Assembly (NCBI GenBank): GCA_021810345.1
Contig: JAJZIX010000001.1
Coordinates: forward strand, 7,847-71,846
Direction: 5' to 3'
Origin: Nanobdellota archaeon
GTDB lineage: Archaea; Nanobdellota; Nanobdellia; Parvarchaeales; Parvarchaeaceae
Length of the DNA: 64,000 nt
Position 1 is the first letter of the stretch, and every line of letters starts with the position of its first letter. This document shows positions 26,620-60,008 of the stretch, piece after piece. Both the position numbers and the translations under genes were made by a program. The notes below the pieces were generated by a model. That model saw only the letters and a list, made by a program, of their open reading frames with translations, ran no database searches and was not told the DNA's origin.

Positions 26620-26702
26620 GCAGAGGTAGCGAAGCGGTCAAACGTGTAAGGCTAAGGACCTTATGGCTCAGGCCTTCGAGGGTTCAAATCCCTCCCTCTG
26701 CA
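26620..26702 (+). tRNA. class II tRNA (long variable arm), Leu-like, apparent anticodon AAG
   Basis: Hand-folded cloverleaf. Acceptor GCAGAGG/CCTCTGC. D-stem with a G-T pair. Anticodon stem TAAGG/CCTTA. Loop CTAAGGA. 14-nt variable arm. T-arm GAGGG-TTCAAAT-CCCTC. Differs at 4 positions from the copy at 51290. May be a degenerate duplicate. Confidence 0.65.
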
Positions 26703-26750: not shown

Positions 26751-26813
26751 ATGAGTCCCCCACGAAGGTCCCAATCAGCACTGGAGTACATGATGATGAC
26801 TATATCCATTTAA
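26751..26813 (+). pseudogene. 20-codon remnant of a pilin-family gene (MSPPRRSQSALEYMMMTISI*)
   Basis: Shares the conserved promoter/5' region and the first 16 codons with the pilin genes at 30660 and 51420. Truncated by a stop after codon 20. Confidence 0.55.
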
Positions 26814-30435: not shown

Positions 30436-30509
30436 GCATCGGTAGTCCAGTGGTAAGACACCACCCTGCCACGGTGGTAACCCGGGTCCGAATCCCGGCC
30501 GATGCACCA
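30436..30509 (+). tRNA. tRNA-Gly (anticodon GCC), CCA encoded
   Basis: Acceptor GCATCGG/CCGATGC. Anticodon stem CCACC/GGTGG. Loop CTGCCAC. T-arm CCGGG-TCCGAAT-CCCGG. 3' ACCA. Confidence 0.8.
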
Positions 30510-30659: not shown

Positions 30660-31772
30660 ATGAGTCTCCCACGAAGATCCCAATCAGCATTGGAGTACAT
30701 GATGACTTATGGTTGGGCCATACTGGTCATTGTGATAGTTGCAGGGGTCTTGTACAGTCTAGGTATCTTTTCCCCTTCATCATCGCTGTCAACAACAATA
30801 ACAGGCTTCTCAGGCTTAGGAGTAACTCAAGCTGGATGCGTGAACTCAGTAAACAACCAAATTCTTGAATTGTATGTCACAAACACAGTCGGTTATCCAG
30901 TAAACATAACAAAAATTAACACTACAGGTAACAACGGCGTAGATGCTTCACAAAATGTAAGCTCGATCTTAGGCGATGGGGACTCTGCGGTGTTTTATAT
31001 CAATGGCGCATGCAACAAGTCTTCTTCTTATGGCGGGTCGGTTACTATAACATATACAGAGCCAGGACAAGCCCTTCCAGGGCCTTATTCTTCAACCGGT
31101 AGAGTAGCCAATGTCCTAGTCTCATCTAACTCAAATTTAGTTGCCAGTTTTAATGGTGTTAACTCATTCATAAATGCTTCTTTGAAACAAGAGCCGATCG
31201 GTAAATCTGTCAGAACTGCTATAATGTGGTTTTATGACAGTAATTCAGCCAATAAGCAACATGTATTTGCATATGGCTGTGGAGGTGGATCTTGTGGCGG
31301 AGGTAAATATTTCACGGTTTATATCTCAAATGGTGACTTAACCCTGAATGCGTATTACACCAATCAGGGCGTTTACTCACCAATACAAAATAACACTTGG
31401 TACTTTTTGGTCTATGAATATAATGGCACGGCACAGATAGGCTATGTTGGTTACGCTGGGAATCTTTATAGTGTATACGGAAATTATAATTATAATACAA
31501 CCCAAACGCCTTTGTATATAGGGTGTGAGGGAAATGATAATGGTGCGGTGTGTAATTCTCAGTTTTGGTATGGGTATATCTCCAATTTTCAGTTATACGA
31601 TCAAGCTTTATCAGCAAGGCAGATTACAGACCTATATAAAAGTGGTATGGGAGCTGCACCGCTTTCTAATAGTGGATTAATAAGCTGGTATCCTTTAGAT
31701 GGAAACGCGAATGATTACAGTGGCCAAAATAACAACGGTGTAGCTACCAACGTTCAGTGGGTCTCTACTTAA
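30660..31772 (+). CDS. type IV pilin-like/adhesin protein with a class III signal peptide and a C-terminal LamG-like domain
   Basis: MSLPRRSQSALEYMMTYGWAILVIVIVAGVLYSLGIFSP has a charged n-region, QSALEY and a hydrophobic helix. Secreted-type S/T/N/G-rich composition with many sequons. C-terminus NFQLYDQALSARQITDLY...WYPLDGNANDYSGQNNNGVATNVQWVS resembles LamG_3 motifs. The tracker ORF from 30429 is a spurious extension across tRNA-Gly. Confidence 0.7.
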   Translation: MSLPRRSQSALEYMMTYGWAILVIVIVAGVLYSLGIFSPSSSLSTTITGFSGLGVTQAGCVNSVNNQILELYVTNTVGYPVNITKINTTGNNGVDASQNVSSILGDGDSAVFYINGACNKSSSYGGSVTITYTEPGQALPGPYSSTGRVANVLVSSNSNLVASFNGVNSFINASLKQEPIGKSVRTAIMWFYDSNSANKQHVFAYGCGGGSCGGGKYFTVYISNGDLTLNAYYTNQGVYSPIQNNTWYFLVYEYNGTAQIGYVGYAGNLYSVYGNYNYNTTQTPLYIGCEGNDNGAVCNSQFWYGYISNFQLYDQALSARQITDLYKSGMGAAPLSNSGLISWYPLDGNANDYSGQNNNGVATNVQWVST

Positions 31773-37729: not shown

Positions 37730-37785
37730 ACTGAGATATGTATATTAATTATCAAATCTAATTTAAATATAGTATTTTAGGCTTT

Positions 37786-37858
37786 GGGTCCATGGTCTAG
37801 TGGTTATGACGTCTGCTTGACGTGCAGAAGGCCGGGAGTTCAAATCTCCCTGGGCCCA
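37786..37858 (+). tRNA. tRNA-Val (anticodon GAC)
   Basis: Acceptor GGGTCCA/TGGGCCC. Anticodon stem TCTGC/GCAGA. Loop TTGACGT. T-arm GGGAG-TTCAAAT-CTCCC. Confidence 0.8.
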
Positions 37859-37866
37859 TCTATTAC

Positions 37867-39993
37867 CTAGCTGCATACACTACTAATTGAGAAGTTTATA
37901 GTCTGGTTAGATCCGCCTGGCAGAGTCCCATTTTTTGGGCAGGGATAATACTCTTTTCCGCTGTATTCTGATGGGTAAACTACAAATCTGCCGCCGCCTT
38001 CCCCTACGTAAAAGGTGAGGTTTTCTACCGAGGCCGTGGATTTGTTAATGTCCTTATAACTTACATTGAAATAAGCTCCAGAAGGAAGACCGCTTTCTGT
38101 AAAGACAGATGTGCAGTTATAGATTTCATTGTACCCCACTTTAAGCGCATCGCCGGCAGTCAATGACCCAGAGCCTGTTGATGGATTATATTCTATTATA
38201 CAGCCAGAGTGCAGGTAGTCTATGTACGAGCTGTAGACTTTAAATTGGTGCGATCCAGTAGCCGTTGAAAATGAAATCGCAGATGAAGAACCAGTGTCAT
38301 TTATTCCGTTGTAATTTACCGTCCAGTTGAGGCCGTAAGGCAGAGCCGATTGGTAAAAGACGGAGACATTCTCAGAGCATGAGGCTGACGTAGAGTACTG
38401 TATAGTTATTGTTGATCCGGCCGCAGAGTAACCCGAAGCAGGGCATGGATAGTAATTCGAGCCGGAGTAGGAGGTGGAATCCACTGAGAATGAATATTTC
38501 CCTTGGGGGGATATTGCTGTTATATTGTCTGGCGCGCTTGATGTCAGCAAGTTGCTGTTGAAATCAACACTCCAGCTTGCACCATTAGGGAGACCGATTT
38601 CATTGAAGATAGTGAAGCAGGAGGTTGTAGTCCCGTAGAAAATCGGGAGTGAACTGCCGGCTTGCAGGGTCCCTTGGGCCGTGGTGGAATACTCATCCTT
38701 GCATCCACCGTGAAATGCAGCTGGAGACGCAAGTGAATAGCTATAATCCCCGGGGGCGGTGGTGAATGAAATAAAAGAGGAGGTAGAGCTGATATTCTCC
38801 CCATCATACTCAACCCACCATTGTGTGCCGTTCCTCATATCGAACGCGTCGAATATGGTTGTGCAGAGGTTTGATTTTGAATTGCAGCTGCTTGTTGTCA
38901 CACTCTGGTTCCATTGCCCGTGCTGCTCTGCGGATACATTTATCGGCAAAGCGGGACTGGCATTGACATCTTTGTATGGCAGCAGATCTATTGATGAGTT
39001 AAGGGGAGTCCATGCGGTTACATTCCATGTTGGGGAGGTGACATAAGCCCCGCTTATCGAGACCGCACTCACGCCTCCAACGCATATATTTGTCCAGTCA
39101 ACGGCAACGTAATACAGCCCGGCCTTCGCAGTCACATATGCAGGCCCGTAGGTGCCTGCCGACTGGCCTTTCCATGAGGCATTGCCGAAAATTGAGACCC
39201 AACTCGATGAACTTGCGTTTCTGTAGAAAACTGCGCTTCCATCGTTCGTAAGTATGTTAAAGCTCACGTTTCCTGTGAAATACATCGCCTTTACTGCTGT
39301 GTATCCCTGCGTGTCATATGGCGCCCCGCAGTTCACATTTCCATTGTTTAGATCTGCAAGCGTGTTTGGGAAAGGCGAAGCAACCTGGCCAAGAAATATT
39401 CCGTTCGCATAGTACTCTTGTGTCTGGTAGGGCACGCCTATGTAAGGGGTGCCAAACGCGTAGGTATTTGATAAAAGCCCGGCTAAATTGCCTGATAACG
39501 TCGTCTGCATCGGGCCTGAGATCTTTCCTGTGGACAACAGTGTGCTTTTCAGCGGTGATTCTACTGATACATATGAGATCTCACCTGGAATTGAGTATGT
39601 GCTTTTGCCAGACTGGCAGACTCCAAGCACGACAAAAATCTGCGATCCTCCCGGAAGCAGCGACACATCATAGTGCTTTGATACAGCGGATCCATTCGGC
39701 TGGGTCAGGTTGAGGCTAGTCAGAATTATAGGCTGCCCCACTTCATTTGAGATTGACAGAAACATCCCAACCCCAGCTACGCATTCAGCCTGCACCTGGA
39801 ATCCGGAGAAGCCGGTGGTGACAGCCGTCAGGCTGGAGGAAGGTGTGAATACACCGAAAGAATAGAGGAAAGCTGCGACTATGACTATTATTATGATAGC
39901 CCAGCCATAGGTCAGCATATACTCCATAGATGACTGAGCGTTCTTGTTTTGTCTAAAAATAGACTTTCTTTTGCTCCAGTTTTTTGAGTGCAT
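37867..39993 (-). CDS. large pilin-like surface protein with a class III signal peptide, tandem beta-sandwich repeats and many N-glycosylation sequons
   Basis: N-terminus MHSKNWSKRKSIFRQNKNAQSSMEYMLTYGWAIIIIVIVAAF is the same leader family as the tRNA-linked pilins. S/T/N/G-rich. The C-terminal 250 aa carry three tandem repeats containing LPNGASWSVDFNSN, LPYGLNWTVNYNG and LPSGAYFNVSYKD. Confidence 0.65.
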   Translation of the reverse strand: MHSKNWSKRKSIFRQNKNAQSSMEYMLTYGWAIIIIVIVAAFLYSFGVFTPSSSLTAVTTGFSGFQVQAECVAGVGMFLSISNEVGQPIILTSLNLTQPNGSAVSKHYDVSLLPGGSQIFVVLGVCQSGKSTYSIPGEISYVSVESPLKSTLLSTGKISGPMQTTLSGNLAGLLSNTYAFGTPYIGVPYQTQEYYANGIFLGQVASPFPNTLADLNNGNVNCGAPYDTQGYTAVKAMYFTGNVSFNILTNDGSAVFYRNASSSSWVSIFGNASWKGQSAGTYGPAYVTAKAGLYYVAVDWTNICVGGVSAVSISGAYVTSPTWNVTAWTPLNSSIDLLPYKDVNASPALPINVSAEQHGQWNQSVTTSSCNSKSNLCTTIFDAFDMRNGTQWWVEYDGENISSTSSFISFTTAPGDYSYSLASPAAFHGGCKDEYSTTAQGTLQAGSSLPIFYGTTTSCFTIFNEIGLPNGASWSVDFNSNLLTSSAPDNITAISPQGKYSFSVDSTSYSGSNYYPCPASGYSAAGSTITIQYSTSASCSENVSVFYQSALPYGLNWTVNYNGINDTGSSSAISFSTATGSHQFKVYSSYIDYLHSGCIIEYNPSTGSGSLTAGDALKVGYNEIYNCTSVFTESGLPSGAYFNVSYKDINKSTASVENLTFYVGEGGGRFVVYPSEYSGKEYYPCPKNGTLPGGSNQTINFSISSVCS
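37870..38616 (-). repeat. three tandem 78-86-aa protein-coding repeats (GLPxGxxWxV...YYPCP... modules) within the surface protein gene
   Basis: Repeat units start at FNEIGLPNGASW, FYQSALPYGLNW and FTESGLPSGAYF. Each carries the YSxS...YYPCP/C-rich tail. A fourth degenerate unit is possible upstream. Confidence 0.5.
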
Positions 39994-45291: not shown

Positions 45292-45768
45292 ATGGTCTTT
45301 ATTGGTTCTAAGTCCGGCGATGTGATGGGCCTTAGCCTTGGCATTCTGATAACCATAGTCATAATAATAATTCTGCTGCTGGTATTTGTTACTCCAATAA
45401 GAACGATACTTATAGGCACGCTAAGCGCCATCCCTTCCCTGATATCCAGCGTCGGCAAAAGCGGCGGCGGGACTTCTAGCCTGGGCACAACAACCACAAA
45501 TTTCACGGCTTATAACTGTACTGGAGTCTCATGTGTAAGATTTGAGAGCTTACCCTACACATGGACTCTAAACTACAATGGGAACAACCAGTCAGCTTTT
45601 GCAAATCAGTCGATACATTTCACCACTGCCCCTCTGAATTACTCTCTGACAGCTTACCCAATACAAGGTAAAAGCATACAGTACTGCTCAAATCTGAGCG
45701 TAAGCCAACCGGCTACGGCAAAGCTTGAGGCAGGATATTCATACACAATTTATTACAAAGTGTGCTGA
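45292..45768 (+). CDS. membrane-anchored surface protein carrying one LPxxWxxNYNG repeat module
   Basis: N-terminal TM anchor LSLGILITIVIIIILLLVFV. The S/T-rich SLPYTWTLNYNGNNQSAFANQSIHFTTAP module is similar to the repeats in the 708-aa protein. Several sequons. Confidence 0.45.
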   Translation: MVFIGSKSGDVMGLSLGILITIVIIIILLLVFVTPIRTILIGTLSAIPSLISSVGKSGGGTSSLGTTTTNFTAYNCTGVSCVRFESLPYTWTLNYNGNNQSAFANQSIHFTTAPLNYSLTAYPIQGKSIQYCSNLSVSQPATAKLEAGYSYTIYYKVC

Positions 45769-46014: not shown

Positions 46015-46089
46015 GGGGCGGTGATCTAGTTTGGTTATGATGCCAGCCTAGGGCGCTGGATGTCCTGGGTTCAAATCCCAGCTGCCCCA
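46015..46089 (+). tRNA. tRNA-Pro-like, apparent anticodon AGG
   Basis: Acceptor GGGGCGG/CTGCCCC. Anticodon stem CCAGC/GCTGG. Loop CTAGGGC. T-arm CTGGG-TTCAAAT-CCCAG. The A at position 34 is unusual. Confidence 0.65.
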
Positions 46090-46133: not shown

Positions 46134-46265
46134 ATGTCTCATAACACAAAAAGCCAGTCCGCCCTTGAATATTTAATGACGTATGGCTGGGCCATTTTGG
46201 TCATTGTCATCGTCGCAGGAGTCTTATACAGTCTAGGAATATTCTCACCGGGCTCATCTTGCTAA
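46134..46265 (+). pseudogene. 43-codon pilin-family fragment holding only the class III signal peptide and TM helix (MSHNTKSQSALEYLMTYGWAILVIVIVAGVLYSLGIFSPGSSC*)
   Basis: Near-identical to the N-termini of the 30660 and 51420 pilins. It stops right after the conserved SLGIFSP motif. Located 45 nt downstream of tRNA-Pro. Confidence 0.5.
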
Positions 46266-51171: not shown

Positions 51172-51289
51172 CTGATTACTTATAAATGACAGGTCCTTCA
51201 AGCGCATGATTACCCTTATAATATAATGCTTTATATTGGTTTTCATGCACTGAAAAGTTAATATTGGTGTGGATCTAAAAAGCAGTGTT

Positions 51290-51372
51290 GCAGGGGTAGC
51301 GAAGCGGTCAAACGCGTAAGGCTTAGGACCTTATGGCTCAGGCCTTCGAGGGTTCAAATCCCTCCTCCTGCA
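51290..51372 (+). tRNA. tRNA-Leu (anticodon TAG), class II
   Basis: Same scaffold as the tRNA at 26620 but with a canonical D-stem (GCG/CGC) and loop CTTAGGA. Acceptor GCAGGGG/CTCCTGC. Confidence 0.8.
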
Positions 51373-51384
51373 TTTTGGTTCAAT

Positions 51385-51399
51385 AAAAACTATTTATTC
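51385..51399 (+). promoter_or_regulatory. conserved BRE/TATA-like element (AAAAACTATTTATTC) upstream of the pilin gene
   Basis: Homologous to the elements at 30624 and 26716. Confidence 0.35.
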
Positions 51400-51419
51400 A
51401 TTCTCTTTACCTCTATTAT

Positions 51420-52556
51420 ATGAGTCTCCCACGAAGATCCCAATCGGCATTGGAATACATGATGACGTATGGCTGGGCCATACTGGTAATCGTCATCGTC
51501 GCAGCAGTCCTGTATTCCTTAGGTATCTTCTCTCCTGCATCGTCTTTATCTCTTACAGTAACAGGATTCTCAGGTTTTGTAGGTACTCAGGCCGACTGCA
51601 CTCCATCAGGTGTATTGGTCCTATCACTCAACGATGCGCTCGGAAATCCTGTTTTCATAAAATATGCAAATTCAACATACAATGGCAAAACCTTCTCATC
51701 AAACGTTTCTGAGACTATACTCCCAGACTCTTCCGGTAAGATACTTATACTTAACGGCTGCGTCAACTCATCAAATGTTCATTTTTCATCCACAGTGACG
51801 CTGGAATACACAGAGCCCGGCCAACCCCTGCCTGGGCCTTATATAAGTACAGGTTATATCACAGGCACTACTTCCTCATTCGTACAGAATACAGTCTCAG
51901 AGTTCATTGTAAATCAAAGTCAAATATACATACCAAATTCAACTACTACTTATAATATGTGGCAGGGTGGGCCTTATACCTTGTCATCTTGGGTGAATTT
52001 GACATCTGATACTGCATCATGTCAGCATTATCCTTGTGTAGCTCTTATCCAGGTTGAATTTGGCTGCACATCCGGCGTACAAGACTTCGCGGCAAATTCA
52101 AGTGGTTTTTGGACAAATGAATTAGAGTGGAATGTCACTCACACCTCGTGTACATCCGGTCAGACATCTCCATCAATTTTCGTTCCTTTTGATAAATGGG
52201 CACTTATAACTGGAATCTTCGGGTATAATAGTTCATCCTCTAGCTATTATGTTGAAATCTGTGTGGATGCAAAATGTGATGAAAATCCTTATACTCTTGA
52301 TCATCCCGGTTACCAAGGTACAGGCGCAACGGCAATCGGTGCATACCAGTTATCTGGCAGAATAGCAAATGTCCAACTCTATAGTTTTGCACTTTCCCAT
52401 AATCAGATTCAGACAATGTATGATGAAGGATACGCAGGTATACCCCCAACTACCAATGGATTAGTGGCATGGTATCCTTTGGATGGCAACGCGAATGATT
52501 ATTCTGGTAATAATAACAATGGCGTTGCAACAAATGTTCAGTGGGTATCACCTTGA
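51420..52556 (+). CDS. type IV pilin-like/adhesin protein, class III signal peptide plus LamG-like C-terminus (paralog of 30660)
   Basis: MSLPRRSQSALEYMMTYGWAILVIVIVAAVLYSLGIFSPASS. The C-terminus LVAWYPLDGNANDYSGNNNNGVATNVQWVSP is about 85% identical at DNA level to the 3' end of 30660..31772. The middle is divergent. Confidence 0.7.
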   Translation: MSLPRRSQSALEYMMTYGWAILVIVIVAAVLYSLGIFSPASSLSLTVTGFSGFVGTQADCTPSGVLVLSLNDALGNPVFIKYANSTYNGKTFSSNVSETILPDSSGKILILNGCVNSSNVHFSSTVTLEYTEPGQPLPGPYISTGYITGTTSSFVQNTVSEFIVNQSQIYIPNSTTTYNMWQGGPYTLSSWVNLTSDTASCQHYPCVALIQVEFGCTSGVQDFAANSSGFWTNELEWNVTHTSCTSGQTSPSIFVPFDKWALITGIFGYNSSSSSYYVEICVDAKCDENPYTLDHPGYQGTGATAIGAYQLSGRIANVQLYSFALSHNQIQTMYDEGYAGIPPTTNGLVAWYPLDGNANDYSGNNNNGVATNVQWVSP

Positions 52557-53802: not shown

Positions 53803-53918
53803 GGGGTTGTAGTCTAATCCGGCAGAATAGGCGGCTCCAGTTTATCTGGAAACATGACTCTAAACGGGGGATGATTAGAAGAAACCGCTTGATCCAGGTT
53901 CAAATCCTGGCAACCCCA
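53803..53918 (+). tRNA. tRNA-Trp (anticodon CCA) with an intron of about 43 nt after position 37
   Basis: Acceptor GGGGTTG/CAACCCC. Anticodon stem GGCGG/CCGCT. Loop CTCCAG|intron|A. T-arm CCAGG-TTCAAAT-CCTGG. The intron TTTATCTGGAAACATGACTCTAAACGGGGGATGATTAGAAGAA contains a GATGA (C-box-like) motif. Confidence 0.75.
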
Positions 53919-54029
53919 CAGATTATATGGGGCATAGTATATCTCTCTCTTAATTTCACTCCTGCCCCAGTATATACACAAAAGTATATACCTTCAATAA
54001 TTCATGCCCAAATCATCTAAAATCAATAT

Positions 54030-54176
54030 CTAATTGGTACAGGTTTCATCTGGTATCAGCTCTACCACCATGAAATCGATTGGGTTAAGTCCAGCTGCCT
54101 TTACTTTTATTGTTACTTGTCCTGGACCGGCTTTCGGCTTGTCTGTCTCCTTGAGGTTTAAGTTATCTATCCATTC
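54030..54176 (-). pseudogene. N-terminal fragment of a zinc-type alcohol dehydrogenase/quinone oxidoreductase (MDR family), no start codon
   Basis: Minus-strand translation EWIDNLNLKETDKPKAGPGQVTIKVKAAGLNPIDFMVVELIPDETCTN* carries the PGPGEVLIKVKAAGLNPVD MDR N-terminal motif. In-frame stops lie immediately upstream. Confidence 0.45.
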
Positions 54177-54437
54177 TTACTAAGAATCCACGCTTTCATA
54201 TAGTATTATTTTACTAGCGATATAAACGCTTTCTTAAGTTTATATTAGTTTAAAACTTCAAATCGCAGTAAACTAGAAAGACGACTCTTACTGACTGAGT
54301 ATGATTAAAGTTATATAGGTTTATAATATATAAACGAAAATCTTTATATTACGTAATAGCTGATAAAAAAAGTAGGGTTTTAGCTTCAATTAAAGCTAAT
54401 AACAAGTGAAAGTAGTTTTTTTTATCAAGTAGAATAT

Positions 54438-55001
54438 ATGGACAACCTAAAATATACAAAAATCGAAAGGGCAGATAACAAAAAGGTTGCAGTATTTGAT
54501 TGTGATGACACTCTCTTTTTTACAGGAGATTCACTTAGATTAGCTTCAAAAGAAGTATTTAACCGAGATTTAACAAGGCTTCAGATTAAAAAATTACCGC
54601 CAAATATAAGAGCTAATCTATTTATCACTGCTAGTAAAAAATATCATACAGCGTACAAACCAAATAAATTGACTATAGATAAATGTAAGATACTTAAATC
54701 AAAAGGATATGATATCATAGTGTTAACTACTCGTTGGAATACTCTCAGAAAATATACCTTAAAAATCTTATCTAATAACAATATACCTTTCAAAAAACTG
54801 ATTTTGGATAGGAATGGGAGTACAGACGGAGAAAAATTTAAAATACACTACATAAAATCTTTGTTATCAAAATACAAGCAAGTCATTTTTTTTGATGACT
54901 CAATAGAAATTATGCGTAAAGTTGAAAGGTTAAATTCATTAAAAAGGGTGTCACTATATTTAGTTAGCCCAACGCGCATACGTCTATATAGAGCAGGATA
55001 A
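54438..55001 (+). CDS. HAD-superfamily phosphatase-like protein
   Basis: VAVFDCDDTLFF is the DxDxT motif I. Lys-rich, AT-rich gene at the left end of the island. Confidence 0.55.
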   Translation: MDNLKYTKIERADNKKVAVFDCDDTLFFTGDSLRLASKEVFNRDLTRLQIKKLPPNIRANLFITASKKYHTAYKPNKLTIDKCKILKSKGYDIIVLTTRWNTLRKYTLKILSNNNIPFKKLILDRNGSTDGEKFKIHYIKSLLSKYKQVIFFDDSIEIMRKVERLNSLKRVSLYLVSPTRIRLYRAG

Positions 55002-55004
55002 TCT

Positions 55005-56081
55005 TTAAATCGCTGCTCTTTTATAAAAATTTTCGAGATTAATACAATTTTCTTTTATGTTGAAGTGTTCCTTGATTACTTCCCGTGCAGAAATACCGAA
55101 TTTTGAGTAATCTGATAAAACATCTCTTATCCCTTGAGATAGCGCTGAGCTACTCTTAGCTTCTACAGTTACACCCCCACCAAACTTTAATGCTTCTTTC
55201 ATTCCTCCTTGATCTGTTGTAACAACTCCCAAACCACAAGCCATCGCTTCTAACATGCTGGTAAGGACACCTTCTCTCGAATAGGATGGGAATACTCCTA
55301 TCTTAGAACGTGAGTAAATTCTTGGAAGGTCTTTAAAGTTGACATAACCTAAAAAATCAATATTGACTTTTAATTTTTTTGACAAAGCATAAAGTCTTTC
55401 CTTCTCTGGACCCTCTCCAGCAATGGCAAGTTTTAGGTCACTCCCTCGTATTGCTTTAATAAGGTAATCTAGCCCCTTTATTTTTATTAGCCTACCTACG
55501 AATACCAAATCATAAATTTTTTTTGTTTTTACCGGTTTAAAAAAATCTGTTGTTATCCCATTGTGTATAACCTTCTTTATTTTATAAGCAAATTCGGGAA
55601 AAAGAGACTGCCATTTAGTTTTGACCTCGGAGCTGACAGATAATATCTTCCTAGCCCTTCCAAGCCCTATTACAGCTCGTTCTACTCTATTATCCGGGTA
55701 ACCATGTAAATGCAGAATAATGTTCTTATTATCAAGTACGATGTGGTCATTAGAGTAGTGGGATATTATAACATCTGGGTTTATTTTTTTTATAGTCTCT
55801 ACCGAGTCGAGTTGCATCATAAGAGATTCAGAGTCCCAAGCTTCCAGTGGAATTCTTGCACCCGCGTGGTAAACCCGGTCCAAAGACTTGATCCTGGAAA
55901 AGATTACTTTAACATTGGCATCTTTTAGTAATTTTAAATATTCAGAAGGTTTTGACGGTTTTGTGGTAATCAAAGTAACGTCATTTCCCAATTTGGACAA
56001 TTCCGCCATCTGATACACAGGTACAATCTCTCCACCCCCTATATAGTAAGATATCCTAGGCTGAACTACAAGTATTTTCAT
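55005..56081 (-). CDS. glycosyltransferase family 4 (GT-B, retaining)
   Basis: C-terminal REGVLTSMLEAMACGLGVVTTDQGG resembles the GT4 EX7E-region motif (EGFGLVLLEAMACGLPVV). Confidence 0.75.
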   Translation of the reverse strand: MKILVVQPRISYYIGGGEIVPVYQMAELSKLGNDVTLITTKPSKPSEYLKLLKDANVKVIFSRIKSLDRVYHAGARIPLEAWDSESLMMQLDSVETIKKINPDVIISHYSNDHIVLDNKNIILHLHGYPDNRVERAVIGLGRARKILSVSSEVKTKWQSLFPEFAYKIKKVIHNGITTDFFKPVKTKKIYDLVFVGRLIKIKGLDYLIKAIRGSDLKLAIAGEGPEKERLYALSKKLKVNIDFLGYVNFKDLPRIYSRSKIGVFPSYSREGVLTSMLEAMACGLGVVTTDQGGMKEALKFGGGVTVEAKSSSALSQGIRDVLSDYSKFGISAREVIKEHFNIKENCINLENFYKRAAI

Positions 56082-56135
56082 ATCTAAATAATACTCATTT
56101 AATGTATAAATTTACTTACTTCCTAATAATCCGAT

Positions 56136-57290
56136 ATGGAAACCGGGGAAATTATTCCTACAGAGGGAAATGGTGTCGTTGGCATTATACTAATAAATGG
56201 GAAGCTCTTAATTGATCTTAGAAACATGAGCAATCAGATGCACCTATGGGAGTTTCCGGGTGGAGGAATAGAGAAGGGAGAAACCGCAGCATCCACATTG
56301 AAAAGAGAGATAGAGGAAGAAGTTGGAATAAAAGTTAAAAAGATGGAATGGTTGGGTGTAAAAAACCAAGCTGTCCACTGGGGCCATACTGAGTTTGAGC
56401 ATTATTTTTTAATTACCGAGATAGAGGGTCAACCTTTTCCTAATTCCCCAAGAGAAGTTAAAGAAGTCAGGTGGGTATACCCAGAAGAACTAAAAGAGAT
56501 ACTAAATTTAGGGTGGAGAGTTACAGACGGCATGTTCTTATTAACCCGTAAGTTAGACAAATATAAAGAAGTATATTCCTCGCTTAAAGATAGAGATCAA
56601 AGACCTGAATTAGGTTTTGAATATTTTGCGTATTCTGAAACCGTTAAAACAGGGCGGAAAAAAGAAAAACTGAATCAGCAACAGGTTTTTCATGAGGAAG
56701 AAACTGAGCTTAAAAAAATACTTTCAAAAAGAAAAGGTCGATTTTTAGAGATTGGGCCTGGATATGGGCGGTTAACCGAAATAATACTGAAGAAAGCCAA
56801 AACCATAGATTTATTGGAAGTTAACCCAGATTTTAGGGCACTACTTATTAAGAGATTTGGTCATAGGGTGAATTTTCTAGAGGGTGTTGCAGAGAAATTT
56901 AGAGCCGATAAAAAATACAATACGATTCTATGCGCCGAAACAATCGAGAATATAAAAGATATTTATGCCTTTGTTGCAAATGTAAGATTCGCTCTTTCGA
57001 AAGGGGGAGTTTTTATCTTGACGTTGGATAATACAGAATCTTCATCGAAGATAAACAGAGATAATTTCAGAAAATTATATGGAGCAAGTACTACGGGGCA
57101 TTACAGAAAAATTACTTTAAAATCTCTATCTAACTTACTCAGAGACTCGGGGTTTAAATTTAGTATTAACGAAATAGGTCATAAATATGTACCGTTGCCA
57201 GCGAGACAAAGGAAACTACTGATTCCAAAACCGAAAAACAAAAAAGATACTTATGTGTTCTTGATCACTTGTACCGTCTATGAAGAATAA
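56136..57290 (+). CDS. bifunctional Nudix hydrolase / SAM-dependent methyltransferase fusion
   Basis: Perfect Nudix box GGGIEKGETAASTLKREIEEEVGI (GX5EX7REUXEEXGU) at residues ~40-65. Class I MTase motif LEIGPGYGRLTEIIL at about residue 205. Confidence 0.65.
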   Translation: METGEIIPTEGNGVVGIILINGKLLIDLRNMSNQMHLWEFPGGGIEKGETAASTLKREIEEEVGIKVKKMEWLGVKNQAVHWGHTEFEHYFLITEIEGQPFPNSPREVKEVRWVYPEELKEILNLGWRVTDGMFLLTRKLDKYKEVYSSLKDRDQRPELGFEYFAYSETVKTGRKKEKLNQQQVFHEEETELKKILSKRKGRFLEIGPGYGRLTEIILKKAKTIDLLEVNPDFRALLIKRFGHRVNFLEGVAEKFRADKKYNTILCAETIENIKDIYAFVANVRFALSKGGVFILTLDNTESSSKINRDNFRKLYGASTTGHYRKITLKSLSNLLRDSGFKFSINEIGHKYVPLPARQRKLLIPKPKNKKDTYVFLITCTVYEE

Positions 57291-58194
57291 ATTGAGTGTA
57301 ATAATAAGTACTTATAAGCACGGCGCGAAACTTTTTTCATTATTAGATTACCTTAATAATCTAAATTTAGACGAAATAGTGGTTATAGATGATCATAGTA
57401 ATAGAGGGGGAGAGATAATAAACAAGCTTAAGAGTTTAAATATAAAATCAAGACTTATAGTAACTAAAAAACCGTACGGTCCGTGGGCAACTAAAAGCAT
57501 TGGAATAAAGGTCGCTAAAAATGATTATATCTTGCATCTGGATGGTGATTGTGAACCTGTAGACAGCGATATAATATCAAACCATTTAAAATGGTTAAAA
57601 AAAGGTTACATATTTGTTTTTGGTAATATACTATTTAAAGAGAAAGACATTTTAACAAATGCATTCTATGTAAGATACTGTCTTTCATCAAGTAAATATT
57701 TTCTAGAGGAACCTAAAGAATTCGATTCCCAAAATATAATAGCCATAACTGGAAATAATTTTTCATTGAATAGAAAAATGCTCTATACTAAAGATATCCC
57801 GAACTTAGGTTTGTATGGTGGGGATGACCTGTATTTTACTACATTAAATATGAGAAAAACGGGTAAAAAGGCGATTTTTGACCCAACTATATTTGTAAAA
57901 CATAAACATGTTTTATCATTACGCAAGCTGATTAATAAGTACTACACTTACGCAGTCGGGAGCGGGGTAAATAGGCGGTTTTTCGGAAAGTTAGGTGACT
58001 ATTACACTGAACCACTCATGAAGATATACTTTTCAAGAATACCCATAGCACTTAATAAATTTGGTTTATATCCGGCTCTTCTGTTTTTTATTTTGTATCC
58101 ATTATACACGGTCGTAACCATACCTGGTTTCATACGCGGATTTACTTTAAAGATAAATAAAATAAAAATAGATTACAAAGAGATAAAAGTTTGA
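57280..58194 (+). CDS. glycosyltransferase family 2
   Basis: LSVIISTYKHG and HLDGDCEP (DxD) motifs. C-terminal hydrophobic segment. Confidence 0.7.
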   Translation: MKNKLSVIISTYKHGAKLFSLLDYLNNLNLDEIVVIDDHSNRGGEIINKLKSLNIKSRLIVTKKPYGPWATKSIGIKVAKNDYILHLDGDCEPVDSDIISNHLKWLKKGYIFVFGNILFKEKDILTNAFYVRYCLSSSKYFLEEPKEFDSQNIIAITGNNFSLNRKMLYTKDIPNLGLYGGDDLYFTTLNMRKTGKKAIFDPTIFVKHKHVLSLRKLINKYYTYAVGSGVNRRFFGKLGDYYTEPLMKIYFSRIPIALNKFGLYPALLFFILYPLYTVVTIPGFIRGFTLKINKIKIDYKEIKV

Positions 58195-58235
58195 TACCTT
58201 AAAGGTTTATATAATACCTGCTATCATACATAAAT

Positions 58236-59099
58236 ATGCCCGGCTCGTATTACGTACGAACAAAGCGAGGGGATGTCCACATAAAAGACGACATAAACAT
58301 AGAAAATGTCTTCCTGCGAATACCTGGCGTAGTATCTGTAAACCATTCTGATACCTTAGAGGACGTATTAGATAGGTATTCTGATGTTTCTGGTTTAGAT
58401 AAAGAGGATTTATCGTACAAAATGACGCCAAAGGATCGTATAGCTCTTGCTGAAATTATTCTAGAATTTTGCGGCGAAACTGAAGGAGTTTATACTATGG
58501 AAGGCGCGGCCATAATAAAAGATAATAAATGTGTTATTCTACAAGGGGACAGCTTAGCGGGTAAGAGCAGAACTGCATATGAGCTTAAGAAATCCTATTC
58601 TATAGGCGGAGATGATAGCGTTCTGCTTAGAATTTTCGGCCAAAAATTAGAATTCGTGGGGGGAAATAGACACTCTGCCCCCAAATTTTGGCATGATAAC
58701 AAAGAATATACTGACTTCGGTGAAAATGCCGTAGCCGACTCAGAGGTGGTTGCTGTAATAAAGTTGAAAACAGTTTATACTCCCAATTCGGATAAATATA
58801 TATTACAGAAATTATCGCCAGATAACCTGCAATTCCTACTATGGTCATGGGTTTCGTCTAAGAGTAGGAGTGTTGGTAGCTATTTGAAGGATATGGAATA
58901 TCCTTTACCTTCCTTAGATACAAATGAATTATCTAAAAAAAGGTTAAATTTTTGTAAGGAAGCGAGCTACGTTCCGTTCTATTTTTATGAAGGCGGGGTC
59001 GAAAACTTATCATCAATAATCTCAATGTTAATAAAAGATGCGGATCACATAAAGGAAGCGGCATATGCCGTAAATTATAAAGATTCTCGGTTAAAGTAA
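58236..59099 (+). CDS. HprK-like P-loop kinase domain protein
   Basis: GAAIIKDNKCVILQGDSLAGKSRTAYELKKSYSIGGDDSVLL parallels the HPr kinase C-terminal domain (HGvLVdv.GvGVLItGdSGvGKSEtALELI.rGhrLVADD.V.I). Confidence 0.5.
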   Translation: MPGSYYVRTKRGDVHIKDDINIENVFLRIPGVVSVNHSDTLEDVLDRYSDVSGLDKEDLSYKMTPKDRIALAEIILEFCGETEGVYTMEGAAIIKDNKCVILQGDSLAGKSRTAYELKKSYSIGGDDSVLLRIFGQKLEFVGGNRHSAPKFWHDNKEYTDFGENAVADSEVVAVIKLKTVYTPNSDKYILQKLSPDNLQFLLWSWVSSKSRSVGSYLKDMEYPLPSLDTNELSKKRLNFCKEASYVPFYFYEGGVENLSSIISMLIKDADHIKEAAYAVNYKDSRLK

Positions 59100-59996
59100 T
59101 TTCTCAATTTCATTGCATATAAACTTCATGCTCCCTTTTATCTGTACTATTGGGATACTTTTTGCGATCTTTCTAGCCAAGCCGATTCGCTTAACAGATA
59201 AATCTATAGTATCTAGTGAACTTAACGGTCTTTTGAACCCGTCTATATAACAACTGTAAAGCCCCCGTATTTCTATACTTAAAAGCTCATACATATGAAA
59301 GATGGATTTTTTACTATTTCCCCAAATTATTTTAACATTATTACCCGTGATCTGTGGGTATACAAATGCAGCTATCCTTGGTTTTTCTTCCATACTATCT
59401 TGATTTAATCCTTTCATATCCTCGTAAATCTTGTAGTGCTCCTTTATGTAAGGCGAAATTTCTTCCATAATTTTGATTTTTCCGACTATATTAGCATTTC
59501 TATCGATAGTTGCTTGACCGTCGGATACAAAATTGAATTTATTATTTTTTACGAGGCTTATGGCGGTACTGCTTTTTCCAGTATCTTTCCAACCAAACAG
59601 GAAAATCGCTTTTCCCTCTCTGCTCACAGCGCTACCGTGTATGCTATACATCATTGATTCTTGTTTTTTGCGCTCGAGTAGGTGTTTTGCTATCGAAATT
59701 ATGTCTTTTGGTTTATTGCCAGTATACTCTGATTTTGGATAGTTTTCCTTCAAGTGAAATTTATTAGATCGATTAACAAAAACATAAGGATATTTTTTAT
59801 TTACATTGTTAATAGAAGGAGAAGTTACAATTTTTTTTATTAATTTATCATTTAGAGTTTTTAATACCAGTTTTCTGTCACCAATTATGTTTATACCAAC
59901 ACCACAACTCTCTAAAGCCAAACTGGCTTTATCTTTAGTATATAAGGCTTTTGTTACGGCCTTTACATCTTTTTCAAAACTAGCATACCAATTCAT
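59091..59996 (-). CDS. HprK-like P-loop kinase domain protein (paralog, convergent with 58236)
   Basis: IHGSAVSREGKAIFLFGWKDTGKSSTAISLVKNNKFNFVSDGQATI has the same HprK-like Walker A plus downstream acidic motif. Confidence 0.5.
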   Translation of the reverse strand: MNWYASFEKDVKAVTKALYTKDKASLALESCGVGINIIGDRKLVLKTLNDKLIKKIVTSPSINNVNKKYPYVFVNRSNKFHLKENYPKSEYTGNKPKDIISIAKHLLERKKQESMMYSIHGSAVSREGKAIFLFGWKDTGKSSTAISLVKNNKFNFVSDGQATIDRNANIVGKIKIMEEISPYIKEHYKIYEDMKGLNQDSMEEKPRIAAFVYPQITGNNVKIIWGNSKKSIFHMYELLSIEIRGLYSCYIDGFKRPLSSLDTIDLSVKRIGLARKIAKSIPIVQIKGSMKFICNEIEKLL

Positions 59997-60008
59997 ACCA
60001 TGTTAAAA

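Follow-up and report, generated by a model that had tools for sequence, protein, structure and literature searches.

Proteins that join a pilin-like N-terminus to a lectin-like head have been described in bacteria and predicted in archaea. In Streptococcus sanguinis, PilC combines a class 3 signal, a short pilin moiety and an immunoglobulin (Ig)-like module with a concanavalin A (ConA)-like lectin that binds host glycans, and the protein was modelled at the pilus tip (PMC9934059). Makarova et al. (2016) predicted that class III-signal DUF2341/PilY1-like proteins of archaeal type IV pilus loci are tip adhesins, in a survey that took in no DPANN genomes (PMC4858521). The EppA-processed (DUF361-type) pilins of Methanococcus maripaludis show a +1 Gln, +5 Glu pattern (PMC3875500), and TafC of the haloarchaeal Tat-fimbriae, modelled at the filament end, combines a filament-subunit domain with a laminin G-like domain (PMC11821415). 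For DPANN archaea, Golyshina et al. reported an expansion of LamG-like proteins, some of which are linked to type IV pilus loci (PMC5498576); other papers treat LamG proteins as Sec substrates and leave pilins unannotated (PMC9563170), and a survey of the Parvarchaeales mentions pilins but not a pilin-plus-head architecture (PMC10134863). Here, we describe a 378-aa open reading frame (ORF) with an ATG start, located at 51420..52556 on the forward strand of a 64,000-nucleotide stretch of a Nanobdellota archaeon (GCA_021810345.1, contig JAJZIX010000001.1, positions 7,847 to 71,846), referred to below as the window.

We consider it probable that this ORF encodes a modular type IV pilin-like adhesin of a Parvarchaeota (DPANN) archaeon. 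Its parts are the following (all on the forward strand; aa, amino acids; AF2, AlphaFold2; pLDDT, predicted local distance difference test):

51420..51440, forward strand: predicted class III-type leader MSLPRRS, aa 1-7, from the leader statistics of 83 family N-termini
51441..51539, forward strand: mature N-terminus and hydrophobic alpha-helix QSALEYMMTYGWAILVIVIVAAVLYSLGIFSPA, aa 8-40, with +1 Gln, +5 Glu and +6 Tyr
51540..51869, forward strand: pilin beta-sandwich domain ending in YTEPGQPLPGPYISTG, aa 41-150, with AF2 strands at 46-150 (pLDDT 80-88)
51870..52430, forward strand: hypervariable LamG/concanavalin-like core, aa 151-337, with PF13385 at aa 179-331, Foldseek matches and PDB profile matches
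52431..52457, forward strand: linker GYAGIPPTT, aa 338-346, from alignment A1, between the AF2 helix 327-336 and the AF2 strand 348-352
52458..52553, forward strand: conserved C-terminal tail NGLVAWYPLDGNANDYSGNNNNGVATNVQWVSP, aa 347-378, homologous to the LamG N-terminal beta-hairpin

The strings that had been quoted in the initial annotation lie at aa 8-28 (QSALEYMMTYGWAILVIVIVA), aa 319-334 (QLYSFALSHNQIQTMY) and aa 351-376 (WYPLDGNANDYSGNNNNGVATNVQWV) of this protein. That annotation, made from the letters of the DNA, had proposed a pilus subunit carrying a lectin-like head, and this architecture is borne out by the homology of the N-terminal module to stand-alone pilins and by the LamG domain grafted C-terminally onto it.

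A search with residues 1-151 retrieved many complete proteins of 153-160 aa, encoded on long contigs and possessing the same helix. Residues 1-150 of the ORF align end to end with these stand-alone pilins; the helix is essentially the same in both, and the beta domain of the short proteins is 40-47% identical to that of the ORF. The stand-alone pilins terminate at ...TGTVYGSSS, which is the exact start of the LamG module in the ORF (...STGYITGTT). Because the short proteins end where the LamG module starts, the ORF is best described as a complete pilin with a grafted head. Two cysteines of this domain stand out in alignment A1: Cys60 never varies, and Cys114 has a conservation of at least 90%. 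The PDB chain that best matches the AF2 model of one stand-alone pilin, P0183 (pLDDT 82.7), is 8fk7_A, a type IV pilus subunit of the archaeon Pyrobaculum calidifontis (E=9.4e-4, probability 1.0), with a template modelling (TM) score of only 0.35-0.40, and the archaellin 5tfy_A ranks third. A 158-aa stand-alone pilin, P0228, is encoded in GCA_027370985.1, a genome which also carries the ORF locus. There (L107, 7300-8477) and in L105 (7259-8477), a conserved pair consists of a gene for a 220-aa protein followed directly by that for the 158-aa pilin. This pair, which has secDF and a ParA/MinD-like ATPase cluster upstream of it, is likely the core pilin locus of the window's species. The 220-aa protein was considered as a prepilin peptidase and rejected: it has no Peptidase_A24 match, and its N-terminus, MR(S/A)QFS(F/I)EF over the two loci and MRSQFSFEF in GCA_027370985.1, is of the QxSxEF, DUF361-like class III type and points to another pilin-like protein.

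The N-terminus of the ORF is ordered as MSLPRRS|QSALEYMMTYGWAILVIVIVAAVLY, i.e., a short charged leader with a small last residue followed by a hydrophobic helical stretch of at least 20 residues, and cleavage is predicted between Ser7 and Gln8. The earlier proposal of a prepilin-type leader is thus upheld by the motif statistics and the helix, but the string beginning QSALEY, then taken as the leader, is the predicted mature N-terminus, the leader proper being MSLPRRS. The statistics were compiled from 83 distinct family N-termini, which were collected with a pattern that fixed +1 (Q/E) and +5 (E) and restricted +2 to +4, +6, +7, +10 and +11. The residue at position -1 is Ser in 63 of them, Ala in 11, Gly in 5, Thr in 2 and Leu in 2; position -2 is Lys or Arg in 73 of the 83; and the leader varies in sequence and, from 3 to 58 residues, in length. 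Among the positions that the pattern left free, several are near-invariant, e.g., +8, +9 and +12 to +21. In alignment A1, which was built without the search pattern, Gln8 is at least 90% conserved and Glu12 is nearly invariant, corresponding to +1 Gln and +5 Glu.

In these respects the family resembles the EppA-processed pilins, with which it shares the short leader, +1 Gln, +5 Glu and the hydrophobic helix; in both organisms, small stand-alone pilins exist alongside larger pilin-like proteins scattered in the genome. We note three differences. First, position -1 is mostly Ser in this family, whereas it is Gly in M. maripaludis. Second, the family has a Flp-like +6 Tyr, which is absent in M. 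maripaludis. Third, the Class_IIIsignal model does not match the ORF, and no EppA-like peptidase was identified.

The C-terminal region had been likened to LamG_3-type lectin domains, and both the domain searches and structure prediction agree with this. The whole ORF matches Pfam Laminin_G_3 with E=7.9e-6 and 26.5 bits, just below the cut-off of 27.6, and the isolated core reaches 29.0 bits, above it; most homologs bear a precomputed PF13385 assignment. A hidden Markov model (HMM) profile of the family finds LamG-like and pentraxin chains in the PDB. The AF2 model of the ORF, computed from a 53-sequence alignment (pLDDT 78.9; predicted TM score, pTM, 0.65), begins with a helix (residues 10-33), which is followed by a beta domain (46-150), a second, beta-rich domain (159-321), another helix (327-336) and C-terminal strands at 348-352, 369-371 and 374-376 (pLDDT 86-94), and the head is a LamG/concanavalin-like jelly roll rather than an unrelated fold. 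Foldseek against the PDB matched 4dqa, a carbohydrate-binding protein of Bacteroides (1.3e-8), and S. sanguinis PilC (7oa8, 8.5e-6; 7oa7, 4.5e-5), and gave probability 1.0 for 4dqa, concanavalin-like domains, the pentraxin PTX3, the LamG domain of PAPP-A and PilC. The LamG/concanavalin-like assignment therefore stands. The proteins were also said to be rich in N-x-S/T sequons; the nine sequons of the ORF (2.4 per 100 aa) indeed exceed the 0.3-1.5 per 100 aa of seven cytoplasmic proteins of the window, but they are not in significant excess over shuffles of its own N/S/T-rich composition (p=0.10). A 708-aa paralog in the window has 24 sequons against 11.3 expected and is enriched beyond composition.

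The quoted C-terminal motif, WYPLDGNANDYSGNNNNG...WVSP, is the first LamG beta-hairpin, placed at the extreme end of the protein. The canonical strand order, in which the W-x-[LF]-D...D-x-S-G hairpin is N-terminal in the domain, is not found in the ORF, and the LamG core begins at the equivalent of the third canonical strand and ends with the helix SHNQIQTMYD. The endings are uniform across the family: the LamG helix (...LS..QI..LY) is followed by a short G-x-P linker and then by GL.GWWPLDGNANDYSGNNNNGVATNV.WVSP, and some 40 family proteins have the Trp of the motif at a distance of exactly 27 residues from their C-terminus. When alignment A1, in native order, was compared with PDB sequences, its core matched LamG-like domains, and sub-threshold matches of the tail fell N-terminal to the core match (4qvs_A residues 22-38; 6hox_A residues 37-55). 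Two further profiles were then compared, A2, in which the tails of 20 sequences were placed before their cores, and A3, in which the same 20 sequences were kept in native order as a control. A2 aligned with 6hox_A (45.2 bits, profile 15-214 to chain 37-242), with 4qvs_A (39.3 bits, profile 15-211 to chain 23-219) and with tetanus toxin Hc (32.1 bits, profile 18-214 to chain 26-233), each time in one continuous stretch that takes in the N-terminal hairpin of the solved domain. The A3 control, in contrast, matched 4qvs_A only over residues 67-219, and at E<=10 it found neither 6hox nor the tetanus toxin. Targets that lack the hairpin, i.e., the pentraxins, scored equally with A2 and A3. Because only the tail-first profile aligns collinearly and the core starts at the third-strand equivalent, profile alignment establishes that the LamG domain is circularly permuted in the gene itself. 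Pfam scores of the permuted tail-plus-core sequences were unchanged, which is uninformative because the PF13385 model begins past the hairpin, and the tail alone gave only chance matches against PDB sequences.

The jelly-roll fold, whose N- and C-termini are adjacent, tolerates moved terminal strands, as ConA illustrates when compared with other legume lectins. The ConA permutation is post-translational, whereas the one described here is encoded in the gene and sits inside a pilin fusion. The high pLDDT of the tail and the proximity of the fold's termini suggest that the tail would pack on its own domain in cis. Over 53 members, mean pairwise identity is 28% in the leader, 86% in the helix, 44% in the beta domain, 20% in the LamG core and 70% in the tail, so that a hypervariable head lies between conserved ends. 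For the two LamG paralogs of the window, tail identity is about 82% at the protein level and only 77% at the DNA level, which shows that constraint acts on the peptide.

The family is large. At E<=1e-3, the ORF has 1282 homologs; those with a name are called LamG domain-containing protein and assigned to Candidatus Parvarchaeota, or belong to ARMAN-4. The earlier guess of a DPANN organism is thus corroborated by the Candidatus Parvarchaeota and ARMAN-4/5 names of the homologs. When species-representative genomes were scanned, at least 527 family stretches could be confirmed; they are spread over Parvarchaeota, 'Nanoarchaeota' (in the GTDB sense), Micrarchaeota and a single Woesearchaeota metagenome-assembled genome (MAG), and at least 12 family genes are present in one MAG, FK_Sedi_A_Bin.254. 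Other heads occur on the same pilin module: DUF2341 in a 464-aa protein (L002:815-2206), two DUF2341-like units in an 838-aa paralog (L043) and a YVTN/NHL beta-propeller in L008:7493-9073. In a 627-aa paralog (L040), LamG is joined to part of a DUF2341 protein and the hairpin is internal. This paralog was considered as a tandem ancestor of the permutation; it looks like a LamG-plus-hairpin unit fused to a DUF2341 part, and it does not settle the origin of the permutation. At the syntenic site after scpB, two close genomes carry different family members (P0006 in L001, P0033 in L002), and the DUF2341 pilin that starts 94 nt past a tRNA-Thr in L002 (interval 650-815) has no counterpart at the same site in L001.

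With the permutation and the family in view, the comparison with the other head-bearing systems can be made more precise. PilC is the closest characterised analogue, as in it, too, a class 3-type N-terminus leads into a pilin moiety, which is followed by an Ig-like or beta-sandwich part and finally by a ConA-like head. However, PilC is bacterial and has no detectable sequence homology to the ORF; the pilin module of the ORF is an archaeal helix-plus-beta-sandwich, and its LamG domain is permuted, with the conserved hairpin at the C-terminus; a single PilC is present in S. sanguinis, as against at least 12 paralogs per ~1-Mb genome here; and glycan binding is a property of PilC that is only putative for the ORF. 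The DUF2341 adhesins are similar in being class III-signal proteins with a ConA-like adhesion domain, and sister paralogs here carry DUF2341 on the same module; the ORF itself has Laminin_G_3 instead of DUF2341, and the family genes lie mostly outside pilus loci. TafC shares with the ORF an archaeal filament-subunit module with a C-terminal laminin G-like domain, but it uses twin-arginine translocation (Tat) export and donor-strand exchange assembly. Membership of the ORF in the TafC family (NF052521) was rejected, the score being 15.1 bits against a cut-off of 410 and the Arg-Arg of the leader not being conserved in the family.

The initial annotation had suggested a check for a pilus assembly ATPase, and in relatives family members stand beside a FlaI/TadA-type ATPase and a platform-like protein. 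In L004/L005, the gene order is a LamG-pilin, a 156-aa pilin (MQRSQAALEF...) and then two convergent genes with products of 709 and 746 aa. The 709-aa product in L004 is a polytopic membrane protein with a weak T2SSF match (E=0.027), and the 746-aa product is an ATPase which matches the models of FlaI (5.9e-37), the TadA family (7.5e-34) and, in NCBIfam, the bindosome protein BasE (1.9e-23). ARMAN-4, ARMAN-5 and one further MAG (L028, L038, L060) likewise have ATPase or platform homologs no more than 4 kb away from family members.

As a separate observation, a subtilisin-like Peptidase_S8 protein of about 805-829 aa with a C-terminal hydrophobic segment is encoded at L004 15988-18477 (reverse strand), adjoining the filament ATPase and platform genes.

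From these data, a working scheme can be outlined. The gene would be transcribed from its own TATA-like promoter, which lies about 27 nt upstream of the ATG. The hydrophobic N-terminal segment would hold the preprotein in the membrane, where a prepilin-type peptidase would remove MSLPRRS to expose Gln1...Glu5-Tyr6, as suggested by the motif and by analogy with the EppA substrates of M. maripaludis. A FlaI/TadA-family ATPase and a polytopic platform protein could then insert the subunit into a type IV filament, in which the near-identity of the helices would permit co-assembly with the ~155-aa stand-alone pilins of the lineage. The beta-sandwich would lie on the filament surface with the ~230-aa LamG jelly roll facing outward as a candidate binding head, and the conserved C-terminal hairpin, by homology the two strands that are N-terminal in a canonical LamG domain, would close this head by packing in cis. 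Variable heads (LamG, DUF2341, beta-propeller, repeat) on one module, with at least 12 paralogs per genome, may amount to an adhesin repertoire, whose targets would most plausibly be glycans or glycoproteins on the host (Thermoplasmatales) or other surfaces. Carbohydrate binding and a position at the tip are both putative; because Glu5 is retained, the subunit need not cap the filament or sit at its very tip.

Several results weigh against the pilin reading. The Pfam Class_IIIsignal/DUF361 models, with which the initial annotation had suggested a comparison, and the NCBIfam pilin models gave no match at E<=10, whether the query was the complete ORF product, its N-terminal 60 or 151 aa, or one of the short stand-alone pilins. 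Position -1 is mostly Ser, whereas Gly or Ala is usual in characterised archaeal substrates. The pilin module model has the weak TM scores to solved archaeal pilins given above, and a PDB sequence search with this module matched no solved pilin. The window contains no assembly ATPase, platform protein or prepilin peptidase, and a motif scan for a prepilin peptidase (G.G[DE].K in hydrophobic ORFs over 925 kb of sequence) yielded no candidate. Lastly, most family genes are dispersed among housekeeping genes.

The last of these points, i.e., the distance of most family genes from pilus machinery, would also be expected if the protein were a surface lectin that is anchored in the membrane and is never built into a long filament, with the class III-type N-terminus serving only for processing, anchoring or a short pseudopilus. 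The sugar-binding proteins of the Sulfolobus bindosome offer a precedent for such a use of the N-terminus (PMC4858521). The cell surface would in that case be covered with LamG heads. The many paralogs with bulky heads of 230-700 aa fit such a coat, and the ATPase beside the family members in L004 matches bindosome BasE as well. However, the headless ~155-aa pilins have essentially the same helix, and these pilins are difficult to account for other than as filament subunits; moreover, Glu5 is conserved, and ARMAN cells have been observed with pili-like connections (PMC5498576, PMC5864196). We therefore regard the surface lectin as rather unlikely, though it deserves to be kept in mind.

The retention of Glu5, which lets further subunits stack above, can also be read in another way, namely that the protein is a major repeating subunit with a LamG head on each copy, giving a lectin-sheathed filament. 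Its conserved ends and hypervariable middle would then recall flagellins with outer domains, and the strong constraint on the tail could reflect head-to-head contacts. This is decidedly unlikely in our judgement, since a stand-alone pilin with the same helix exists in the same species (P0228 in GCA_027370985.1) and is a simpler candidate for the major subunit, and since many heads on one helix fit interchangeable minor subunits better.

A more speculative idea, to which we give little credence, is that the near-invariant hairpin is donated in trans to the head of a neighbouring subunit or docks on a conserved partner, and that heads are exchanged between paralogs by way of the conserved 5' and 3' ends, which often follow tRNA genes. 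If hairpin donation did occur, it would constitute a strand-exchange-type lock between the outer domains of a type IV filament, suited to very low pH; head exchange between paralogs, if true, would provide a DPANN symbiont with a means of varying its host range or its antigens.

The class III resemblance could also be coincidental, in which case the protein would simply be a LamG surface protein that is secreted through Sec or anchored by its N-terminus; the missing class III and pilin HMM matches and the published listing of DPANN LamG proteins as Sec substrates (PMC9563170) might speak for this. We find it very improbable. A variable leader gives way sharply to the invariant Q-S-A-L-E-Y, with a small residue at -1 and a basic one at -2; no A-x-A site of the signal peptidase I type follows the hydrophobic segment; family members adjoin a type IV filament ATPase; and the short-pilin model has an archaeal pilin fold as its best match.

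The general design of the pilin-like adhesin proposed here is already known, and modular pilin adhesins will not greatly surprise a specialist. What appears to be new in the literature is an explicit pilin-plus-head family in Parvarchaeota, its size, the helix that it has in common with stand-alone pilins, and the permuted LamG domain with a conserved tail. ARMAN/Parvarchaeota cells have been observed joined to wall-less Thermoplasmatales through pili-like structures, and DPANN genome papers often report that pilins could not be annotated. The family provides candidates for such an ARMAN-type attachment apparatus, namely a stand-alone ~155-aa pilin and a dozen or more head-bearing versions per genome. 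The gene-encoded LamG permutation with its highly conserved tail is a small structural curiosity which could bear on filament architecture.

Within the window, the ORF is not the only member of the family. The initial annotation spoke of proteins in the plural, and the same leader indeed occurs five times, in three full genes and two truncated copies. The other copies, and the elements directly upstream of the ORF, are the following:

30660..31772, forward strand: full paralog of 370 aa that shares the leader, pilin module and tail and has a different LamG core (Laminin_G_3, 38.7 bits), downstream of tRNA-Gly 30436-30509
37867..39993, reverse strand: paralog of 708 aa that shares the pilin module and has as its head four ~90-aa beta repeats, not LamG, with no Pfam match
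26751..26813, forward strand: truncated remnant with the leader and QSALEYMM, divergent thereafter, with a stop at 20 codons, 49 nt past tRNA-Leu 26620-26702
46134..46265, forward strand: truncated copy of 43 codons, with leader and helix and then a stop, 45 nt past tRNA-Pro 46015-46089
51289..51373, forward strand: tRNA-Leu(TAG), called by ARAGORN and by Rfam RF00005 (60.6 bits), directly upstream of the ORF and given for context only
51385..51399, forward strand: promoter-like element AAAAACTATTTATTC, resembling a B recognition element (BRE) and TATA box, read from the sequence, its centre about 27 nt 5' of the ATG

The repeats of the 708-aa paralog follow the pattern W.V.Y.G....S..I.F....G.Y.Y, and one similar repeat unit occurs in a 158-aa membrane protein at 45292..45768 (forward strand).

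The tRNA-Leu(TAG) ends 47 nt before the start of the ORF. The promoter-like element, as AAAAC(T/C)ATTTAT(T/C), also precedes the copies at 26751 and 30660, and its spacing from the ATG suggests a leaderless or near-leaderless mRNA for the ORF. Between copies, the intergenic region and leader are 83-86% identical (blastn), and the remnant at 26751 is 86% identical in DNA to the region 51289-51465 over 177 nt. In both truncated copies, the promoter-like element is still present, along with the leader and a portion of the helix, and each may be either a pseudogene or a mini-pilin. At the site of the 26751 remnant, six related genomes have no full-length gene, and the gap from the tRNA to the next gene is equally short there; at the site of the 46134 copy, the three related contigs that were read have no family gene.

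All five leader copies in the window adjoin a tRNA gene. Four of them begin 45-151 nt past a same-strand tRNA (Leu, Gly, Pro, Leu), and the 708-aa paralog ends 7 nt from tRNA-Val (window 37785-37867). As a family-wide trait, this adjacency was rejected, as elsewhere the 400 nt upstream contain a tRNA in only about 7 of 90 genes, where a rough null would give 3-5%; it looks local to the window's lineage.

The same 378-aa gene is present at this locus in nine near-identical strains. When L095-L102 are compared with the window gene, single-nucleotide polymorphisms (SNPs) concentrate in the pilin module and the tail, with a density of up to 5.7% in the tail and about 0.15% in the LamG core and the flanks; a raised diversity of the LamG core was not seen among these strains. 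Several of the variant bases are the bases of the paralog at 30660..31772. The pattern reflects either short-tract gene conversion between paralogs or chimerism in metagenome assembly.

The neighbours of the ORF are housekeeping genes, i.e., those for S-adenosylmethionine (SAM) synthetase, a GH15 glycosidase, ribosomal protein L21e, Rpo4 and a DUF655 protein, and the remainder of the window includes RNA polymerase, aminoacyl-tRNA synthetase, SMC and FtsZ-type genes. Across window positions 54000-60000, the GC content falls from about 0.44 to 0.33-0.35, and this low-GC block encodes GT4 and GT2 glycosyltransferases, a NUDIX-methyltransferase fusion and HAD-like phosphatases. The block may be a horizontally acquired glycosylation island, relevant to the sequon-bearing surface proteome. 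Rfam, but not ARAGORN, calls a 116-nt tRNA at 53803-53918 (44.6 bits), which probably contains an intron.

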